From: an uncultured Pseudomonadales bacterium
GTDB lineage: Bacteria; Patescibacteriota; Microgenomatia; UBA1400; Chazhemtobacteraceae
DNA: 64,000 nucleotides
Assembly (NCBI GenBank): GCA_964618725.1
Contig: CAZUBK010000004.1
Location: 79,485 to 143,484 of the forward strand
Direction of reading: 5' to 3'
The position numbers and the translations under genes were made by a program. Below are positions 24,230 through 64,000 of this stretch, in pieces. The notes under the pieces are model-generated. The model saw nothing but the letters and a program-made list of their open reading frames with translations. It was not told the origin of the DNA and made no database searches. Every line of letters starts with the position of its first letter. The stretch's first letter is position 1.

Positions 24230-24353
24230 TTTCCAAAACCGAAGCCATACCCGAAACAACTGCAAATTTGTACATTCAGCCTCAAAACTGTACAACTTTC
24301 ACGCTTCTCTTTCCTAACTCCGCTTCTTTCTTCTACTTACAAATTTCGCATTT

Positions 24354-24497
24354 AAGTTCTAGATACCTGTAAACAAAAACATTACGCAGACAGAAAAAGC
24401 CGGTTTCGAAACGAAGTGAAGAATTTTTCTAGTCGAGTAAGAGACTGGCCGAGTCGCTGGACGAGGAACATGTCGTTTTTTGTGACAGGTATTTGGA
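24354..24497 (+). repeat. ~145-bp dispersed repeat, copy 1
   Basis: About 85% identical to 39584..39727. Both copies begin GTTCTAGAT and end ATATTTrGAAyA, which are imperfect terminal inverted repeats. Confidence 0.6.
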
Positions 24498-24703
24498 ATA
24501 TCAGAAGTGCGAAAGTTGCACTAGATATTTCACTTCCTCCATTCTTCCCTCCAGTGTTCGCGTCATCAATCCATTCCCACTTTTACCTGTTGACTTCACC
24601 CACAAAATCCTTCATAAATTAATACTAGATAAAGTTGTACATTTAGCCTCAAAAAATATCTAAATTTTATATACAACTTTTCTCCAAAGACAAAACTGCC
24701 CAA

Positions 24704-39551: not shown

Positions 39552-39583
39552 GGATTGATCTTACTACGACTTTCGCGTATGGG

Positions 39584-39727
39584 TTCTAGATGTTTACAAA
39601 CAAAAACATTACGCAGATTAAGAAAAGCCGGTTCCTGAGTCAAACGAAGGATTTTTCTAATCGAGTTAGAGGCTGGCCGAGTCGCTGGACGAAGAACATG
39701 CCGTTTTTTGTAGTAAATATTTAGAAC
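39584..39727 (+). repeat. ~145-bp dispersed repeat, copy 2
   Basis: Aligns base-for-base with 24354..24497, including the shared core GGCTGGCCGAGTCGCTGGACGA...CGTTTTTTGT. Confidence 0.6.
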
Positions 39728-50167: not shown

Positions 50168-50557
50168 CTACTTTTCCAAAATCCGAGCCATCAGCAAAGT
50201 GTAAAACAAAGATGCCAAGGCCATCAAGATCATCACCAGCGGGAGCACTGCTCCCCCAATTCCCAATATCTGCATATCTGGTAGCCAGGAAGCACCCAAC
50301 ACTGCCCACAGCTCAACAACATACAATCCTATTTCCGCCGGGTGACTATTCTGCTCACTAAAGTAAAGACCCACCTTGACCGGCGTGGCCAAAAACAGCT
50401 GGACCAAGACCAGCAGAAGGTAGTTCTCGAAACGAAGTTCCGGTAACCACAAAAAGATCGCGGCAATAGTCAGCACTACACCACTGACCACCGCCTGAAT
50501 TAAGTCCTGGAGCTCATACGGCTCCTTTAACGCCTGTTGTAAATTAACCCTTCCCAT
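50168..50557 (-). CDS. hypothetical small polytopic membrane protein
   Basis: Three hydrophobic helices. Confidence 0.5.
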   Translation of the reverse strand: MGRVNLQQALKEPYELQDLIQAVVSGVVLTIAAIFLWLPELRFENYLLLVLVQLFLATPVKVGLYFSEQNSHPAEIGLYVVELWAVLGASWLPDMQILGIGGAVLPLVMILMALASLFYTLLMARILEK

Positions 50558-50695
50558 TTCTCTATCCTTTCAAAGAACCAAGTTGCCGATAGTATATCAA
50601 GACTGTGATGTGTAAGCAATTACAGATCTTGACAAGCCCCCCTTCTTATGGTACTATAGGACCCATCGTTTCCACATTATAATATTGGAGGAAAC

Positions 50696-51238
50696 ATGGA
50701 TCTCTTTAACAGCGCTAAAGCCAAGGTTGTTCTGGTCAAGAATCATACTCTCACCCAGACCGTCCTCGACGTTCTGGAAGGCGTGATTCTGATTTTGACA
50801 GCCATCCAGGCTGCCAAGGTCACCCTGCTGTTCGCTCTCCATCTGTTTGGGGCGCAAATCCCCAGCTGGGGCGCACAGCTCGCCGGAACTTCCTACCTGC
50901 TGGTTTTGGGGGATTTCGCCCTTCGGGGCGCCGTCCTCTACGGCCTGGTCCGGCTCGAATCTGACCCGAATCAGCGGCGTGAGCTTCACGCCACGGCCAC
51001 GCCCATCATGGCGCTGGCCAGCCTGGGCCTGATTGTCAACCTGCTCCCCTTTGAATGGCGGAGTCTGGGAACAATCGTTCTGATCGGCGCCTTCGGCGGC
51101 ATCACCCATGTGAGCCTCCACGGCACGCTCATGAATTGGAAGCAGACGATTAGTGCCGTCGAGGCACTGTTCAACAAGGCGAACGACAAGCTCGCCAAGA
51201 CTGCTCCGGCTCCGGCCAAGAAACAGACCACCAGCTAG
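50696..51238 (+). CDS. hypothetical polytopic membrane protein in a GC-rich islet
   Basis: Four TM helices. Local GC is about 60% versus about 45% for the window. A strong terminator follows. Confidence 0.55.
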   Translation: MDLFNSAKAKVVLVKNHTLTQTVLDVLEGVILILTAIQAAKVTLLFALHLFGAQIPSWGAQLAGTSYLLVLGDFALRGAVLYGLVRLESDPNQRRELHATATPIMALASLGLIVNLLPFEWRSLGTIVLIGAFGGITHVSLHGTLMNWKQTISAVEALFNKANDKLAKTAPAPAKKQTTS

Positions 51239-51253
51239 CGCAACAAAAGATCA

Positions 51254-51278
51254 CCGCCCCTCATCGAGGGGCGGTTTT
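51254..51278 (+). terminator. intrinsic terminator (CCGCCCCTC-ATC-GAGGGGCGG plus TTTT)
   Basis: Perfect 9-bp hairpin followed by a T-run. Confidence 0.75.
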
Positions 51279-51290
51279 CGTATACAAAAT

Positions 51291-51343: not shown

Positions 51344-51943
51344 CTATTCCTGCCGCGTCTGTGACCGCTCCCGGGGTGCCTCGGTTGGGATCCGTGGCGT
51401 CGCCGCCCTGGCCACCGGTATAGTCGCCGACGCATCGGGTTCTTCATTCATCCGCGCCTCAAGACTAGCCGCCGCGTCACCGGCAATCTGACCGATCTTG
51501 GCGCCAACTGGCTTAAGAGCCGACATGAGCATGGAAAGACCAGTGACCAAACCAATCCGAACTCCCCTAAAGACACCCAATTGGTGGTTCTCAACCATCC
51601 AAAGGAGGCCGAAACCAACGAGCAGGACCAGAAGTACGGGTACCGCCGATAACGACGGTAGTAAAATTACCCCAACTGCCGCAATCAACGTCAAACCAAT
51701 CACCAGCAACTCAAAGGCTGCATCTTCAGCCGTATCGAAAAACCAGGTCATCACTTGGAAGACAGCAATCAACGCGATCGATCCACCAGCCAAGTACAAT
51801 GCTTCCATCGGACTCTCGCCCAAAAGTAGGTTCAACAGCAAGTCAACACAGATGATCGTCAGAAAGATAGATTGAATCACATCCCAAACCATCGCCATCT
51901 TCGGCTTGGCTCGCTTATTCTTCCACGCATTCCACAAACCCAT
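51344..51943 (-). CDS. hypothetical polytopic membrane protein in a GC-rich islet
   Basis: Four TM helices and a GC-rich C-terminal tail that is Pro/Arg-rich. Confidence 0.55.
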   Translation of the reverse strand: MGLWNAWKNKRAKPKMAMVWDVIQSIFLTIICVDLLLNLLLGESPMEALYLAGGSIALIAVFQVMTWFFDTAEDAAFELLVIGLTLIAAVGVILLPSLSAVPVLLVLLVGFGLLWMVENHQLGVFRGVRIGLVTGLSMLMSALKPVGAKIGQIAGDAAASLEARMNEEPDASATIPVARAATPRIPTEAPRERSQTRQE

Positions 51944-54508: not shown

Positions 54509-54582
54509 TGGACCCGATCGGGATCGAACCGATTACCTCCACTATGCCATAGTGGCGCTCTAGCCAAGTGAGCTACGGGCCC
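54509..54582 (-). tRNA. tRNA-Ala (anticodon GGC)
   Basis: Minus strand GGGCCCG-TA-GCTC-ACTTGGCTA-GAGC...CCACT-ATGGCAT-AGTGG...ATCGG-TTCGATC-CCGAT-CGGGTCC-A. The G3·U70 alanine identity pair is present. Confidence 0.8.
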
Positions 54583-54699
54583 GCGTAAAACGTGGCAAGC
54601 CAAGCTACATTTTACCATGTTATTATAACCACCAATAGTGAAAATTAAGCTCTTATCCCCCTACGCACCTTTCCATTCATGTTCTTAAGGAGACCTCCC

Positions 54700-54909: not shown

Positions 54910-55013
54910 TCCTTTTTTTCACCACCTCCTCTTGGCTGGTTTCTGTCTGTTTCTTCCATCAGTGTGGCAAACTATCTCTGGCTTGCCGCGTTTTGGCTTG
55001 CCGCGTTTTACGC

Positions 55014-55084
55014 GGGCCCGTAGTTAAACGGTATACCATACCCTTCGCATGGGTAGATTCCGGGTTCGACTCCCGGCGGGTCCA
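55014..55084 (+). tRNA. tRNA-Ala-like (anticodon CGC), possibly degenerate
   Basis: GGGCCCG acceptor identical to the minus-strand tRNA-Ala, G3·U70, loop TTCGCAT, T-arm CCGGG-TTCGACT-CCCGG. The D-arm is atypical with one mismatch. Confidence 0.5.
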
Positions 55085-58012: not shown

Positions 58013-59035
58013 TTATACTTTCTTGAGTAACATCTTCTTCAACTCCTCAATCCCTTTTCCTGTTGCTGCCGAAACAGGCAGAATATCCACTCCCTTGTCC
58101 GCCAAATACCCGACTATTTGCTCCACCTCTCCTTCTCCCAACACATCGATTTTACTTAACACCACTATCTCTTTTTTCTTTAATAGCTTCTTGTCGTATT
58201 CCTCCATCTCTTTGCTGACTATCTGATAACTCTCCCACAATGCGGCAGGTTCCCTACCTTCCAGAACATGGACCAAAACTCTCGTCCTCTCAATGTGGCG
58301 CAGAAACTCATCTCCCAAACCCCTACCATGACTTGCCCCTTCAATCAATCCAGGAATATCGGCAACAACAATCCCTTTCCTCTCTTTTCTTCCTCCCACC
58401 TCTAATACTCCCAGGTTTGGCACCAAAGTCGTGAAGGGGTAATCGGCGATCACCGGATTTGCCCGAGTTAATACACTAAGAAGGGTGCTTTTCCCCGCAT
58501 TCGGCAGCCCTATCAATCCTACCTCAGCTAATAGTTTCAACTCTAAAATCAATTCTCTCTCTTCTCCCCGTGTCCCTTCCTCAAACTCCATTGGCGTCTG
58601 ATTTGATGCACTTCTAAATCGCCAGTTTCCTCGTCCACCTCTACCTGCCTGCACCACCATTATTCTTAGTCCTTCTTCATTAAGATCCAAAATATGATTC
58701 TCTCCCCGCCTATCTTGATATTTAACTAACGTTCCTACCGGCACTTTTAAAATCACATCCAACCCGCCTCTCCCCGTCATCTTGTTTATTCCTCCCGGTT
58801 TGCCGCTCTCTGCCTCAAATTCTTTTTTGTAGCGAAAATTGATCAAAGTGTTCAAATTTCGGTCCGTCTCTACATATATTGATCCACCATCCCCTCCATC
58901 ACCGCCGTCAGGTCCTCCTTTTGGTTGATGTCGTGATCTCAAGAAATGAACCATCCCGTTTCCTCCATCTCCCGCCTTCACTTGTATTTCCGCATAGTCT
59001 ATCATTTGTCCTATTTTAGCATTGATTATCCTCAA
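58013..59035 (-). CDS. obg: GTPase Obg/CgtA
   Basis: Obg fold with the Gly-rich GGPDGGDGGDGGSIY, G1 GLPNAGKST, and G3/G4 motifs. Confidence 0.9.
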   Translation of the reverse strand: MRIINAKIGQMIDYAEIQVKAGDGGNGMVHFLRSRHQPKGGPDGGDGGDGGSIYVETDRNLNTLINFRYKKEFEAESGKPGGINKMTGRGGLDVILKVPVGTLVKYQDRRGENHILDLNEEGLRIMVVQAGRGGRGNWRFRSASNQTPMEFEEGTRGEERELILELKLLAEVGLIGLPNAGKSTLLSVLTRANPVIADYPFTTLVPNLGVLEVGGRKERKGIVVADIPGLIEGASHGRGLGDEFLRHIERTRVLVHVLEGREPAALWESYQIVSKEMEEYDKKLLKKKEIVVLSKIDVLGEGEVEQIVGYLADKGVDILPVSAATGKGIEELKKMLLKKV

Positions 59036-59059: not shown

Positions 59060-60298
59060 CTACTTCAAGAAACTCAATGGATTAAGCCCCACTCCCGTCT
59101 GCCGGATCTCGAAGTGTAGATGCGTCCCAGTTGACCGACCGGTCGATCCCATCGCCCCCAAGACATCCCCTCTCTTTACCGATTGACCTGCCACCACATT
59201 AAACTTACTCAAATGAGCATACAGCGTCCTAAATCCATTCCCATGATCGATCACTACTCTGTTTCCATATCCAAAATTATCCGGCCAACCTGCCACCACT
59301 ACTCGTCCCGAATCAGCCGCCAAAATCGACCCTCCCGCCTTGTTTGCGATATCAATCGCCGTATGCCACGGTCTCCAGGGCTGAGTAATCCGTCCCGCCG
59401 CTGGCCAAATCCACGTTCCTGTCGCCGAGACCGCTCCTGCATCTGGTGTCAGGACTCTCGCAATACTGCTCGCTGGTGACCACGTCACCTCTGTCTTTAC
59501 TCCGTCAGGAACATAAAGAGTTTGCCCTATCGCCAAAGCAAAGGTCTCATCATTGGTAAAGATATTGAACGGAAAATCCACCATTGACTGCGCATCAGTG
59601 TCATATTTCTTAGCAATCGAATATATCGTCTCCCCACTTTTAACCATATGCACCACTCCCGTTATCGGAGGGATCTTCAACGTCTGGCCCGGCTTAATAC
59701 TGTTAACCGACACCACTTTATCTTCATTTTCCCATCTGATCGTATCCGTACTCACTCCGAACTTTTCTGCAATAGAACTCAAGGTGTCTCCCGTTTGAAC
59801 TTCATAATCTACCACCTCTGACCTTGGCTTATTACTTTCCTCTGTTTGCGTATTGATTCCAATATTTGTTCCAAGGATTACTCCTCCCACGCCACGACTC
59901 TCTTCATCATTTCCCAGAGGCAACGAGGCCACTTCTGTCGCACTTTCCCCAAATACTCTCTGTGTCCATTGCTTTTGCGTTGCATCACTCCCCGACAAAA
60001 TCGCCGGTCCCAGTGTCAACCCAAAAAAAACCAACATCACCATCCCGACATGAACAAATATTCCTGCATATTTCCCCCGTTGTCGATACATCCCTCCCAC
60101 CAAGACTCCCTTACCTGCTTCAAAACTACCAAAGTATCCACTTATTCTTTGTTTAAGATAGTTACTAAATACAACCAAAAACGTTCCGAATTCCTCAATC
60201 CACTCAATCCATAGCTTCTGCCACCAACCTTTTGTATTTTGGCGCTCGAGTCGCTTCCATCTAGTCTCTAACATGACAACTAAGTATTGTAACATCAA
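59060..60298 (-). CDS. LysM-domain M23 family peptidase
   Basis: Two LysM segments (TGDTLSSIAEKFGVSTDTI and SGETIYSIAKKYDTD) and a C-terminal M23 domain ...VVIDHGNGFRTLYAHLS...GSTGRSTGTHLHFEI. Confidence 0.8.
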   Translation of the reverse strand: MMLQYLVVMLETRWKRLERQNTKGWWQKLWIEWIEEFGTFLVVFSNYLKQRISGYFGSFEAGKGVLVGGMYRQRGKYAGIFVHVGMVMLVFFGLTLGPAILSGSDATQKQWTQRVFGESATEVASLPLGNDEESRGVGGVILGTNIGINTQTEESNKPRSEVVDYEVQTGDTLSSIAEKFGVSTDTIRWENEDKVVSVNSIKPGQTLKIPPITGVVHMVKSGETIYSIAKKYDTDAQSMVDFPFNIFTNDETFALAIGQTLYVPDGVKTEVTWSPASSIARVLTPDAGAVSATGTWIWPAAGRITQPWRPWHTAIDIANKAGGSILAADSGRVVVAGWPDNFGYGNRVVIDHGNGFRTLYAHLSKFNVVAGQSVKRGDVLGAMGSTGRSTGTHLHFEIRQTGVGLNPLSFLK

Positions 60299-60530: not shown

Positions 60531-62378
60531 GTGACTTTCTCAAACCATCCCCGGGGATCAATTGTCGTCAAAACCGCCATTCATTTCCGTCGTCTTCATC
60601 GTCAAATCACTCGCTTAAACAAAACCATAATTAGTCTCTACCATCTTACTAAACCTTTTCACCCCACCATTCTTGGTTTCTTCGCCATTCTTGGCCTTTA
60701 CGAGGGTCTTCAAGCCGCTGACTCGCTTTTCCCTAGTCTGATCGTCAGCTTTGCCTTAAGGCAAGCTACTCTTGCTCACTGGATTGGCTTGTTTGTTGCC
60801 ATTCTCGTCATGAGTGCTGTCCACATTTGGCTTGATAACAAGCTCGACTGGGTCATCATCATGAACCTGAGCAACCCCGTCTATATCCACCTCAAGGAAA
60901 TTGCCTTCAGTAAACTTCTTAATCTTCATATGGCTTGGCACCAAGCGACCAACTCCGGCGCCGAAGTCGGCAAAGTCCAGCGTGGCGTCGACAAGACGCA
61001 AGAGATCTTTAGCTTATGTCTTTGGGAATTCGTTCCCACTCTCGTTCAGAGTCTCATCGATGCCGTTATCTTGCTTGTCAGAAGCCCTTTTGTTTTGATT
61101 AATATGATTCTTTCTTTAGTCATCTTCATGTATCTTTCTCTGAGCAACTTCGTCAAACGCACTTGGCCTCGTCGCAAACGGCACGACGATTACGAAGACG
61201 AGTGGATCCTCTTTAATCAATCGACCGAATCCGCCGCCGTTGAAACCATCAAAAGCTATGGTCAAGTCGACCACTACGTCGATCGCCTCCGGACTATTCT
61301 CTATGACATCAAGCACCAGGCCGGTATTGAAAGCCAAATCGGCATCTACGGTTACAATCGTCCCCGTATCGCCATCATCAAGGCCTCCCGTACCCTCAAT
61401 TGGGTCATCTGGGCCCTCCAAATGCAAAGCGGTACCCTCACCATCCCTGAGTTTATCTTTCTTCAAACCCGTGCCGAAAAGATCTTTCATTCATACTGGC
61501 GCTTTGCCCGTCTCTTTGAACAGTTCCAGGAAGCCGTCGAAAGCGTCGATCGCCTTATGCGCGTCCTCGCTACGACACCCCAGATTGATAGTAGTCTCGG
61601 TGAACAGTTCCAAGATGTTACCCCAACCATCTCAATTGAGGATCTCCAGTTCACCTATCCCTCCAGCAACAGCAAAAATAACGGTGGCCTCCATGGCATT
61701 AATCTAAATATTGCTGCCGGCGAAGTTGTCGGCGTTGTCGGCACCTCCGGAGCGGGTAAAACCACTCTCCGCCGCCTCATTACCGGCCTCTGGCTGGCCA
61801 ATGCAGGGCAAATCCTCATCGGCGGACACACGATCAATGAATGGAATCCAAACGCCCTCTTGTCTCAATTTGCCTATGTACCTCAAGGCCACGACGTTGT
61901 CCTCTGGGATTTTCTCACTATGGGTGAAAATATCAGCCTCTCTCGCCCCACTGCTACTCAAGAAGAGATCGAAACCGCTGCCCACCTCGCTGGCATCCAC
62001 GACTATATCGTGAGCCTCAAAGGAGGTTACTCTTCTAAGGTTGGTGAACGTGGCGTCCATCTTTCTGGCGGTCAAAAACAGCGCCTTGCCCTAGCTCGTG
62101 CCATTCTGGCTGATCGCCCCTTCTTCATTCTTGATGAAGCTACCAGCAGCGTCGACAAAATCACCGAACATGAAATCCAGAAAAACCTCAAAAGTGGCCT
62201 TCTGGCCGGAAAAACCGTCATCGTCATCGCCCACAACCTAAGCACGGTTTGGGACATTGCTGACCGTATTATCGTCATGCAGCATGGCCGCATTATCGAG
62301 CAAGGCAGTCACGAAGAGCTCCTAACTCAAAAAGGCGTCTATGCCCAAATGGCTGCCCTACAAGGTGGCTCACACTAA
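60531..62378 (+). CDS. ABC transporter permease/ATP-binding protein (type I exporter, MsbA-like)
   Basis: GTG start after AGGAGG. Six TM helices, then GTSGAGKTTL, LSGGQKQRLALARA, and ILDEATSSVD. Confidence 0.88.
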   Translation: MTFSNHPRGSIVVKTAIHFRRLHRQITRLNKTIISLYHLTKPFHPTILGFFAILGLYEGLQAADSLFPSLIVSFALRQATLAHWIGLFVAILVMSAVHIWLDNKLDWVIIMNLSNPVYIHLKEIAFSKLLNLHMAWHQATNSGAEVGKVQRGVDKTQEIFSLCLWEFVPTLVQSLIDAVILLVRSPFVLINMILSLVIFMYLSLSNFVKRTWPRRKRHDDYEDEWILFNQSTESAAVETIKSYGQVDHYVDRLRTILYDIKHQAGIESQIGIYGYNRPRIAIIKASRTLNWVIWALQMQSGTLTIPEFIFLQTRAEKIFHSYWRFARLFEQFQEAVESVDRLMRVLATTPQIDSSLGEQFQDVTPTISIEDLQFTYPSSNSKNNGGLHGINLNIAAGEVVGVVGTSGAGKTTLRRLITGLWLANAGQILIGGHTINEWNPNALLSQFAYVPQGHDVVLWDFLTMGENISLSRPTATQEEIETAAHLAGIHDYIVSLKGGYSSKVGERGVHLSGGQKQRLALARAILADRPFFILDEATSSVDKITEHEIQKNLKSGLLAGKTVIVIAHNLSTVWDIADRIIVMQHGRIIEQGSHEELLTQKGVYAQMAALQGGSH

Positions 62379-62384
62379 CGAAAA

Positions 62385-62415
62385 CCCCTCTCAATTGAGA
62401 GGGGTTCTTTTTTTT
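62385..62415. terminator. bidirectional intrinsic terminator (CCCCTCTC-AATT-GAGAGGGG plus T9)
   Basis: Perfect hairpin between the ABC gene (+) and the 62425..62718 gene (-). Confidence 0.75.
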
Positions 62416-62424
62416 GCCCAATGG

Positions 62425-62718
62425 CTAGCGGCGGCGGCCGCCACCCCCATGGGGGGCAGCCTTCTTCTGGCGCGCCTTTTCCTCCGCCTTGACGACGGAG
62501 GGTGACTTGTAAACCGCCACCAACATCAGCGTCCGGCCAGAGCCGGGATGACGCCCGTACAGGCCGTAGCCCTGAGGCCCGTTTTGAAGGGTGGCGACCA
62601 CCGTCACGAACCGTGTCTGGAGCTTCGCTCCAGTCTCGGTTGTGACAACCTCGCGGACCTTGAAGGTCACGGTCGGCCGACGCTCGATGTCCCAGCCTGC
62701 CACTTTGAAAGTTGCCAT
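62425..62718 (-). CDS. hypothetical protein (97 aa) in a GC-rich islet
   Basis: AAGGAGG SD 5 nt before the ATG. A consensus promoter (TTGACA-17-TATATT) lies upstream on the minus strand at + coordinates 62768..62796. Confidence 0.55.
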   Translation of the reverse strand: MATFKVAGWDIERRPTVTFKVREVVTTETGAKLQTRFVTVVATLQNGPQGYGLYGRHPGSGRTLMLVAVYKSPSVVKAEEKARQKKAAPHGGGGRRR

Positions 62719-62767
62719 CGTTTCCTCCTTGAAAATGCTGTCACAGCTGAGGGAATCGATAACCCGT

Positions 62768-62796
62768 AATATACTACAAAATCACCTATTTGTCAA
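62768..62796 (-). promoter_or_regulatory. consensus sigma70 promoter for 62425..62718
   Basis: Reverse complement reads TTGACA-aataggtgattttgtag-TATATT. Confidence 0.55.
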
Positions 62797-62861
62797 GTCA
62801 TGGGCCGTTGGCCCGAAGATCCCGAGCGTAGCGAGGGACCACAATTTACAAGAATATTCCA

Positions 62862-62890
62862 TTGACTTTCAGACCCCAATATGGTACTAT
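62862..62890 (+). promoter_or_regulatory. sigma70 promoter (TTGACT - 17 nt - TACTAT) for a small peptide gene
   Basis: It is divergent from the minus-strand promoter about 70 bp away. Confidence 0.5.
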
Positions 62891-62920
62891 AAGTTTATCA
62901 AAATCTACGGAGGGCAAAAA

Positions 62921-63010
62921 ATGACTTGGCTTCTGGGCAAGATCATCGCGGTGGCCTTGTTCACCGCCGCAACTATGATGGTGGGCCTCACCATCGCCCG
63001 CCTGTTTTAG
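62921..63010 (+). CDS. 29-aa hydrophobic peptide (MTWLLGKIIAVALFTAATMMVGLTIARLF)
   Basis: GGAGGG SD 6 nt upstream, its own promoter and its own terminator. The overlapping longer ORF 62591..63010 is less plausible. Confidence 0.4.
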   Translation: MTWLLGKIIAVALFTAATMMVGLTIARLF

Positions 63011-63025
63011 ATCTCGATTCCAAAC

Positions 63026-63046
63026 CCCCGCCTTGTGCGGGGTTTT
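63026..63046 (+). terminator. intrinsic terminator (CCCCGC-CTTGT-GCGGGG plus TTTT)
   Basis: It lies directly after the small peptide ORF. Confidence 0.6.
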
Positions 63047-63073
63047 CCTTACAAGGTTCGTAACCTTGCTTTT

Positions 63074-64000
63074 TCATCCCTTCAGACTGGCCAAGAATTC
63101 TTTATTTGTCTTCGTCTTCTTCAATCGTTCCAGCAAGACATCAGTTCGCTCTCCGTCATTAAGCATGTCAAGCATCCTCCGCATCAGGATAATATTTTGG
63201 TATTCCGCTGAGCCAAAGAGCAAATCCTCTCGTCTGGTACTGGAGGCCTGGACATCCACCGAGGGGAAGATCCTCCGGTTAGCCAGCTTACGGTCAAGCA
63301 CCAACTCCATGTTGCCCGTTCCCTTGAACTCTTCGTAAACCAGATCGTCCATTCGGGAACCGGTATCGACCAAGGCCGTACCAATAATGGTTAACGATCC
63401 ACCGTTTTCCATCTTTCTCGCCGCCCCGAAAAATCTCTTAGGAGGGAACAAGGCAGCCGGATCAAATCCTCCGGACAATGTCCTTCCCGAAGTCGGCATC
63501 GCCAGGTTGTAAGCACGAGCCAAGCGCGTAATCGAGTCAAGGAGTATAACTACATCTGCGCCTTGTTCAACCATTCTTCGCGCTCGCTCTAAAGCGATTT
63601 CTGCTACTCGAGTCTGGTCTTCCGGTCTCTCGTCAAAGTTACTCGCAAAGGTCTCCCCCGGCATCTTACTTTTCTTAGTGATTGCTTCAATGTGTCTGGC
63701 AATATCCGTCACCTCCTCGGGACGTTCCCCGATTAAAACTGCCATTAAATGAATCTCTGGATAATTTGCCGCCATTCCCGTCGACATCTCTTTGATTACC
63801 GTTGTTTTACCGGCCTTCGGTTGGGCCACAATCATGCCCCGCTGCCCCTTACCAATCGGCGCCACCAAATCGATCAAACGGGTTGACAGCGGTTCCGGGC
63901 CTGTCTCTAGCGTTAGCTTCTCAAACGGATAAATGGGCGTCAGTTGATCAAACTTAGGTCGCTTGTTTAAGCCTATCATCTCTTTATCACCATTAACCGC
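63074..64000 (-). CDS. rho: transcription termination factor Rho, N-terminus beyond the window edge
   Basis: ...VAPIGKGQRGMIVAQPKAGKTTV..., the RecA-like ATPase, and a C-terminal ...RKLANRRIFPSVDVQASSTRREDLL. The Walker A sits only about 55 aa from the ORF start, so the N-terminal RNA-binding domain must lie upstream. Confidence 0.85.
   Translation of the reverse strand, partial: AVNGDKEMIGLNKRPKFDQLTPIYPFEKLTLETGPEPLSTRLIDLVAPIGKGQRGMIVAQPKAGKTTVIKEMSTGMAANYPEIHLMAVLIGERPEEVTDIARHIEAITKKSKMPGETFASNFDERPEDQTRVAEIALERARRMVEQGADVVILLDSITRLARAYNLAMPTSGRTLSGGFDPAALFPPKRFFGAARKMENGGSLTIIGTALVDTGSRMDDLVYEEFKGTGNMELVLDRKLANRRIFPSVDVQASSTRREDLLFGSAEYQNIILMRRMLDMLNDGERTDVLLERLKKTKTNKEFLASLKG

Follow-up and report, generated by a model that had tools for sequence, protein, structure and literature searches.

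The DNA considered here is a 64-kb window (64,000 nucleotides, to which all positions refer) of contig CAZUBK010000004.1, from a bacterium of the Patescibacteriota. Near the end of the window lies an islet of about 0.65 kb (62380-63075), flanked by the gene of an ATP-binding cassette (ABC) exporter on the plus strand and the 3' end of rho on the minus strand. The islet holds two divergently transcribed genes: p97, which encodes a basic protein of 97 residues, and pep29, which encodes a hydrophobic peptide of 29 residues. The original prediction, made from the letters of the window alone, had placed here two divergent σ70 promoters, two strong Shine-Dalgarno (SD) sequences, a 97-residue and a 29-residue open reading frame (ORF), and two intrinsic terminators. 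All of these were found, the terminators flanking the locus:

62383..62406, both strands: bidirectional intrinsic terminator, a perfect 12+12 palindrome (AACCCCTCTCAA/TTGAGAGGGGTT), bordered by an A-tract at one end and by a T-tract at the opposite end
62425..62718, minus strand: p97 ORF, 97 residues, 87% identical to its relative P0002
62724..62730, minus strand: p97 SD, AAGGAGG, 5 nt before the ATG, identical in the related contig L001
62721..62796, minus strand: hyper-conserved 76-nt block comprising the p97 promoter with all 17 spacer bases, the leader, and the SD
62737..62747: palindrome GCTGT-C-ACAGC, 11 bp, in the p97 leader, a candidate operator
62768..62796, minus strand: p97 σ70-type promoter, TTGACA-17-TATATT, 11 of 12 consensus positions matched, identical in L001
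62806..62861: 56-nt segment between the two -35 boxes, absent from L001 (boundaries approximate)
62862..62890, plus strand: pep29 σ70-type promoter, TTGACT-17-TACTAT, with a TG-extended -10 (ATGGTACTATAAG)
62909..62914, plus strand: pep29 SD, GGAGGG, 6 nt before the ATG
62921..63010, plus strand: pep29 ORF, 29 residues, a single-helix peptide (MTWLLGKIIAVALFTAATMMVGLTIARLF) with a grand average of hydropathy (GRAVY) of 1.67
63026..63042, plus strand: pep29 intrinsic terminator (conserved in L001), CCCCGC-CTTGT-GCGGGG and then TTTTCC
63052..63068: hairpin CAAGGTT-CGT-AACCTTG, abutting the rho stop codon, with a T-tract on the plus strand only
60531-62378, plus strand: ABC exporter gene (Pfam ABC_membrane plus ABC_tran), convergent with p97
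63074 to the end of the window, minus strand: 3' end of rho (Pfam)

The terminator at 62383..62406 is scored on both strands and ends both the exporter gene on the plus strand and p97 on the minus strand. As predicted, local GC content is above background: 0.60-0.67 across 62300-62760 vs 0.47 for the window as a whole. Most of the excess lies within the p97 ORF (GC 0.65; third-position GC, or GC3, 0.78), while the pep29 ORF has a GC of 0.58 and a GC3 of 0.83. The GC3 of neighbouring genes is about 0.40-0.56. Five promoter-like sites are present in the region, compared with 1.8 ± 1.2 in shuffled sequence. Across the 64 kb, TTGACA-N17-TATAWT with at most one mismatch has 7 matches, where 0.68 would be expected.

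Conservation of the locus in a second sequence

A single related sequence was found. A protein search with p97 matched P0002, which is encoded on a 2.1-kb contig, L001 (European Nucleotide Archive ERZ4903072). On this contig, rho is followed by a convergent small hydrophobic ORF, then by the two back-to-back promoters and by p97, with the beginning of the same terminator last. The layout and both genes are thus kept in the one relative that the suggested look at conservation produced: both promoters (hexamers and spacing), the ribosome binding sites (RBSs), the ORFs, and the terminators all recur, the 3' half of the 62383..62406 hairpin being present at the end of the contig. As transcription units, the genes have hexamers spaced by 17 nt and a GC hairpin with a U-tract, features that are conserved in L001. 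The window and L001 share 98.7% protein identity and 86% DNA identity in Rho, and 104 of 302 third positions differ, indicating that the two genomes are well separated. In L001 too, GC3 is higher in p97 (0.69) and in the peptide gene (0.67) than in rho (0.49).

Differences between the two p97 genes are mostly silent. There are 27 synonymous vs 13 non-synonymous codon differences, distributed over the three codon positions as 11/8/28, a pattern indicating that p97 is a real protein gene under purifying selection. The protein is strongly basic (pI about 11, with 18 K+R vs 6 D+E), its C-terminus, ...APHGGGGRRR, is invariant between the two sequences, and it is predicted, with low confidence, to be β-rich with a C-terminal helix. 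Inside the coding region, an inverted repeat at 62609-62641 has 15-nt arms (13 of 15 positions complementary) and a 3-nt loop; it is imperfect in L001.

Searches place p97 in no family. It has no match in Pfam, PHROGs, NCBIfam, or PADLOC, and no homologue beyond itself and P0002 among 5.8 billion clustered proteins. Pfam reveals no ribbon-helix-helix (RHH), AbrB, helix-turn-helix, or other recognizable DNA-binding domain. An exhaustive search of 1.84 billion representatives gave two matches, a cadherin-like protein of 2124 residues and a tandem-repeat protein of 323 residues; both are repeat proteins that score over many stretches and were set aside as spurious. A match from a genome collection (L002; 50% identity over 28 residues) was rejected since it falls in an alternative frame of a 279-residue ORF, which, judged only by its sequence, we take to be a methyltransferase gene of the rsmA/ksgA type. 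Nothing was found in viral, metagenome, phage, and plasmid collections, and a p97 profile run against all PDB sequences gave nothing below E = 0.14. AlphaFold2 models are unreliable, with a predicted local distance difference test score of 58 from the two-sequence alignment and 44 after trimming of the tail, and a Foldseek comparison of the low-confidence model with the PDB gave no match at E ≤ 0.001.

Multiple observations support translation of the 29-residue ORF. Its L001 orthologue has 32 residues and a GRAVY of 1.89, and begins with a GTG positioned 6 nt after AAGGAGG. All of the indels that separate the two peptide genes are whole codons, and the frame is preserved. Among the 30 aligned codon positions (start and stop counted), 5 are identical, 10 differ synonymously, and 15 differ non-synonymously; by codon position, a hand tally from the aligned codon table gives 11/7/18 differences. 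Almost all of the residue changes replace one hydrophobic residue with another. The hydrophobic core comprises 19 residues, and the small residues G6, A10, T15, A17, G22, and A26 are invariant. The initial transcribed region and the terminator of the peptide gene are also conserved. With frame, RBS spacing, and hydrophobicity all kept in L001, the prediction that this is an independently transcribed, gene-like unit is borne out, and the ORF is very probably translated. Together, the comparisons indicate that p97 and pep29 both genuinely encode proteins and that the signals for their expression are conserved.

The rate at which pep29 has changed is itself unusual. Base divergence from L001 is 41%, and 18 of 29 third positions differ. 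The proportion is lower both for rho (104 of 302; Fisher P = 0.004) and for p97 (28 of 98; P = 0.002), a contrast suggestive of accelerated evolution of the peptide, given a comparison of two short sequences. Neither peptide is present as an exact match in a collection of 15 billion proteins. The pep29 transcript, of about 150 nt, is more structured than shuffled sequence (z = -2.8 in the window and -4.9 in L001), and a consensus fold of the two peptide transcripts is poor outside the terminator.

The two promoters have diverged very differently. That of pep29 keeps its hexamers and the TG, and 8 of its 17 spacer bases are identical, a pattern that looks like the expectation for a plain promoter at such divergence. 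Over the 76-nt block of p97, by comparison, the window and L001 differ by one substitution and one single-base indel. At most one difference in 75 positions has a binomial probability of 3e-5 if the block diverged like p97 (16%) and of about 1e-12 if it diverged like the third positions of rho (34%), a level of conservation that points to strong constraint on the p97 promoter and leader. The only substitution falls on the middle base of the palindrome (C in the window, A in L001). Leader RNA structure was rejected as the cause of this conservation, because the leader folds no better than its shuffles (z = +0.5); a protein-binding DNA site or a sequence-specific RNA site is therefore favoured.

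Between the promoters, the -35 boxes lie about 66 nt apart in the window and 9 nt apart in L001. The region of the additional segment in the window holds a hairpin, GGGCCGTTGGCCC (62802-62814), and a degenerate hairpin, TCCCGAGCGTAGCGAGGGA (62820-62838), that resembles a repetitive extragenic palindromic (REP) element. The latter is a degenerate copy of a REP-like hairpin family, GTCATCCCGAGCG(T/A)AG(T/C)CGAGGGATCTC, that recurs in related genomes: in L022 at about 382, in L059-L061 at about 6914 and 7447, in L063 at about 2048, and in L067 at about 8906. In L059-L061, the repeat is found directly after rho.

Possible roles of p97 and pep29

The reading that we tentatively prefer, although we give it less than an even chance, is that pep29 acts on the membrane as a micropeptide, with p97 as a basic partner that binds nucleic acid and regulates its own expression. 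The two would then form a cassette of the toxin/neutralizer type that is controlled by protein and not by RNA. As envisaged, a horizontally acquired, lineage-restricted pair of genes would occupy the variable gap downstream of rho, with two back-to-back promoters of constitutive type firing outward. The short, structured mRNA of about 150 nt would yield pep29, whose single helix would insert into the cytoplasmic membrane and act there as the effector, either as a toxin-like peptide or as a modulator of a membrane protein. p97 would bind nucleic acid and repress its own promoter/leader through the GCTGT-N-ACAGC palindrome; such autoregulation is the simplest candidate for what constrains the 76-nt block. 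Being co-inherited with pep29, p97 would serve as controller or neutralizer of the cassette, an arrangement loosely like that of a type V system. From the sequences, then, we infer the membrane insertion and activity of pep29, nucleic-acid binding and autoregulation by p97, and a functional link between the two. The signals for translation also differ in accessibility: the SD of the peptide is predicted to be mostly paired (unpaired probability 0.17 in the window and 0.002 in L001), while that of p97 is mostly unpaired (0.53 and 0.72).

Several points weigh against this reading. There are two sequences in total, so every comparison rests on one pair, and the near-identity of the 76-nt block could also stem from a recent recombination tract. 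The candidate operator is confined to the p97 leader, and there is no sign of an interaction between the two genes. p97 lacks a homologue other than P0002, a family, and a confident fold, and its assignment as a nucleic-acid-binding protein comes from its basic charge. Cationic residues are few in the peptide (K7 and R27 in pep29; R2 and H28 in L001). Finally, synonymous recodings of the pep29 ORF give equal occlusion of the SD in the window (median unpaired probability 0.16-0.18; P about 0.5), and the L001 sequence differs from its recodings marginally (P about 0.02-0.05). The occlusion thus probably arises because a peptide rich in Ala and Leu is encoded with GC-rich codons, and it need not reflect selection. 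Sequestration of the RBS, a hallmark of toxin-antitoxin (TA) systems of type I, was for this reason not accepted as positive evidence.

Known systems offer partial likenesses to the protein-controlled cassette. In the type V pair GhoT/GhoS, reportedly described by Wang et al. in 2012, a protein antitoxin is said to act on the toxin mRNA. ghoS and ghoT lie in one operon, and GhoT is a protein of 57 residues with two helices. The islet resembles this pair in that a small membrane peptide is accompanied by a protein of about 98 residues instead of an RNA. In contrast, p97 and pep29 are divergent and each has its own promoter, and p97, which is without similarity to PDB entries and is predicted with low confidence to be β-rich, does not appear to have the RNase fold of GhoS. 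Autoregulated type II TA and repressor genes provide a second comparison. Like them, p97 combines a near-invariant promoter and leader containing a palindrome with a small basic product, and it sits at a hotspot in which the cargo of relatives includes RHH/TA-like ORFs. Unlike them, p97 is monocistronic and lacks a recognizable DNA-binding domain. A bolder version of the preferred reading is that the islet represents a new toxin-neutralizer module, the first in Patescibacteria/the candidate phyla radiation (CPR), in which a membrane micropeptide toxin would be checked, in place of an antisense RNA, by a divergently encoded, family-less basic protein able to bind its own leader, the peptide mRNA, or both, the whole travelling into intergenic hotspots as a 0.65-kb unit from promoter to terminator. 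We regard this version as unlikely.

The main alternative, in our view only slightly less likely, holds that the genes are accessory ORFans with no relation to each other that chanced to be acquired together, with pep29 a benign modulator of a membrane complex, in the manner of KdpF, AcrZ, MgrB, or MgtS, and p97 independent of it. Each gene does have its own promoter and terminator, and the single transmembrane helix of pep29 carries conserved small-xxx-small motifs (G6...A10 and G22...A26) that suit helix-helix packing. Furthermore, the other GC-rich islet of the window uses the same extended -10 sequence to drive an unrelated membrane ORFan; cassettes of one gene thus seem to recur in this window. 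Small modulators of membrane proteins include KdpF (29 residues), MgtS (31), CydX (37), MgrB (47), and AcrZ (49). pep29 is like these in its size, its single transmembrane helix, its small-residue packing motifs, and in belonging to a kind of gene that annotation often misses. However, the known modulators usually lie within or are co-regulated with the operon of their partner and are conserved across genera, whereas pep29 stands alone, is limited to two genomes, and is rapidly diverging. It changes faster than the synonymous sites of its neighbours, which is unusual for the subunit of a fixed partner, and no partner gene is evident. The adjacent ABC exporter was considered for that role and rejected. 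The three closest exporter homologue loci with retrievable context (L083-L085; 45-49% identity) have a convergent gene 3-45 nt after the exporter gene with no small ORF between, and they lie in other, differing neighbourhoods, leaving no conserved association. By kind, pep29 belongs to the known class of small membrane-protein genes that stand alone, of which it is a new example without a family. The original prediction had likened it to a type I toxin or a small membrane regulator; as a description of class, small membrane protein holds, while the type I label is not established.

In a classical type I TA system, pep29 would be the toxin and its antitoxin an undetected antisense RNA, most plausibly produced by read-through from rho. 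We consider this unlikely. Membrane-associated type I toxins are hydrophobic, shorter than 60 residues, and have a putative α-helical transmembrane domain (PMC8309996), a profile that pep29 matches with its one predicted helix. Like TisB (also 29 residues), DinQ, TimP, ShoB, and ZorO, it is a tiny hydrophobic single-helix peptide with its own strong, constitutive-type promoter and its own terminator. Like TisB-type toxins, it also has a short structured mRNA whose RBS is predicted to be paired (here the SD pairs with the 3' end of the ORF) and a divergently transcribed neighbour, and such loci are likewise chromosomal, horizontally mobile, and poorly conserved.

A further feature of such systems, an antisense RNA, was not found at the locus. 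No antisense promoter-like site is present over or beside the peptide gene in either the window or L001, Rfam yields no family match, and the duplex predicted between the peptide mRNA and the divergent p97 leader has an energy that does not beat shuffles. The search for an antisense RNA that the original prediction had proposed was thus negative, and the p97 leader was discarded as a trans-antisense regulator of the peptide mRNA. The divergent transcript is instead the mRNA of a 97-residue protein, neither overlapping nor complementary to that of the peptide. In further contrast to TisB-type loci, there is no SOS or other recognizable regulatory box at pep29, and C-terminal cationic residues are few (R27; H28 in L001). 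Occlusion of the SD in the window falls within the range of the synonymous controls. The locus is single-copy, with no further copies in the 64 kb, and L001 does not retain the short repeats within it (D2, I7). pep29 shows no similarity to Hok, Ldr, Fst, TisB, Ibs, or other Pfam or NCBIfam families. At E ≤ 1 there is no match in Pfam, NCBIfam, or PADLOC, and one PHROG of unknown function is matched at E = 0.39. The host phylum lies outside the described range of type I systems, which are known only from Proteobacteria, Firmicutes, and Tenericutes, plus one cyanobacterial case (PMC12390103). Our literature search found no paper that pairs type I toxins with the CPR.

Read-through from rho deserves mention, since it could supply the antisense RNA that the promoters do not. 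In the rho direction, the hairpin at 63052-63068 is without a T-tract and that at 63026-63042 is followed by just TTTGG. With U-tracts that are absent or weak in this direction, rho transcription may continue antisense through pep29 and on into p97. The hairpin abutting the rho stop codon is the ancestral rho terminator hairpin; L041 (2500-2530) carries the same hairpin with a T-tract in the rho sense.

It is still less probable, and in our view quite improbable, that the plus strand gives rise to a small non-coding RNA or to noise from the promoter, with the 29-residue ORF incidental. The transcript is indeed short (about 150 nt), runs from promoter to terminator, and is more structured than shuffles. 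However, in each sequence the start codon follows an SD by 6 nt, the indels preserve the frame, and the differences include 10 synonymous codons and follow a gradient of third over first over second positions. Hydrophobicity is kept at 41% base divergence, and the two-sequence consensus RNA fold is poor beyond the terminator. Last, the idea that the true gene is a 139-residue ORF antisense to p97 (62591..63010), whose conservation the original prediction had named as the competing outcome, is refuted by the comparison: although it is open in the window, it is interrupted in L001 by the 56-nt indel (not a multiple of 3) and by a TGA that stands in frame directly ahead of the start of the peptide, it has no RBS and no Pfam match, and the strand opposite it shows the coding codon-position pattern.

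CPR bacteria have reduced genomes and almost no experimentally characterized small proteins. Gene callers miss the 29-residue gene; pep29 is a well-supported example of a micropeptide encoded by a genome of CPR type. Should the peptide prove toxin-like, toxin modules built on membrane peptides would reach a phylum without described ones, and control by protein rather than by RNA would be indicated. If it is not, the locus would still illustrate how small, self-contained foreign units of promoter, gene, and terminator enter the hotspot downstream of rho. Either outcome would be incremental and not field-changing.

The gap downstream of rho and other features of the window

Eighty metagenomic loci (L003-L082) with a Rho that shares 73-82% identity with that of the window were fetched for comparison; these rho relatives come from groundwater-type sources. 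In many of the 80, a LysM/M23 peptidase gene comes only tens of bases after rho, with obg next; the counterparts of these two genes in the window lie at 59060-60298 and 58013-59035, respectively. Across the 80 loci, the gap between rho and the M23 gene ranges from 0 to 5.3 kb, and in those where it is occupied the cargo amounts to 0.3-5.3 kb and differs between loci. Judging by motifs in the translations, as opposed to family scans, we read this cargo as DUF4012-like, FkbM-like, and RHH/TA-like ORFs. p97, the peptide, and this ABC gene are present in none of the 80 loci. The absence of the islet from these relatives and the variable size of the gap argue that it is a recent insertion, and together with its GC3 they indicate that it is compositionally foreign and horizontally acquired. 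Both the islet and the adjoining ABC gene look like occupants of an insertion hotspot that varies between lineages.

Among named homologues of the ABC exporter, the best matches come from Candidatus Woesebacteria and Collierbacteria (44-46% identity) and, taken with the groundwater-type sources of the rho relatives, they suggest a host of CPR/Microgenomates type. The mechanically called ORF begins about 36 codons early; the homologues have 577-578 residues and cover 94% of it. The exporter scores below all of the curated NCBIfam cut-offs.

In the other GC-rich islet of the window (50620-51290), the promoter is TTGACA-17-TACTAT, and it shares its extended -10, ATGGTACTATA, exactly with the pep29 promoter. 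The exact 10-mer TGGTACTATA occurs twice in the 64 kb, once at each of these two promoters. This islet also contains an SD (GGAGGAAAC), its own terminator, and a hydrophobic ORFan of 180 residues (50696-51238) with a GC3 of 0.75. The ORFan has no Pfam match and no homologue, and is itself absent from the protein collection. From its hydrophobicity, as distinct from a transmembrane prediction, we take it to be a membrane protein. Two hydrophobic ORFs without a Pfam match, 50168-50557 and 51344-51943, both on the minus strand, flank the islet.

On a larger scale, the GC skew of the plus strand (1-64000) is negative nearly throughout, typically -0.1 to -0.5, regardless of gene orientation; one 1-kb bin reaches +0.02. 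Two divergent tRNA genes, at 54509-54582 on the minus strand and 55014-55084 on the plus strand, are overlapped at their 5' ends by the arms of a 31-nt inverted repeat (54573-54603 and 54993-55023; 97% complementary). Elsewhere, a direct repeat of about 160 nt (24338-24498 and 39565-39726; 73-81% identity) has copies 15.2 kb apart, one of them just upstream of a repeat-rich giant ORF of 2460 residues.

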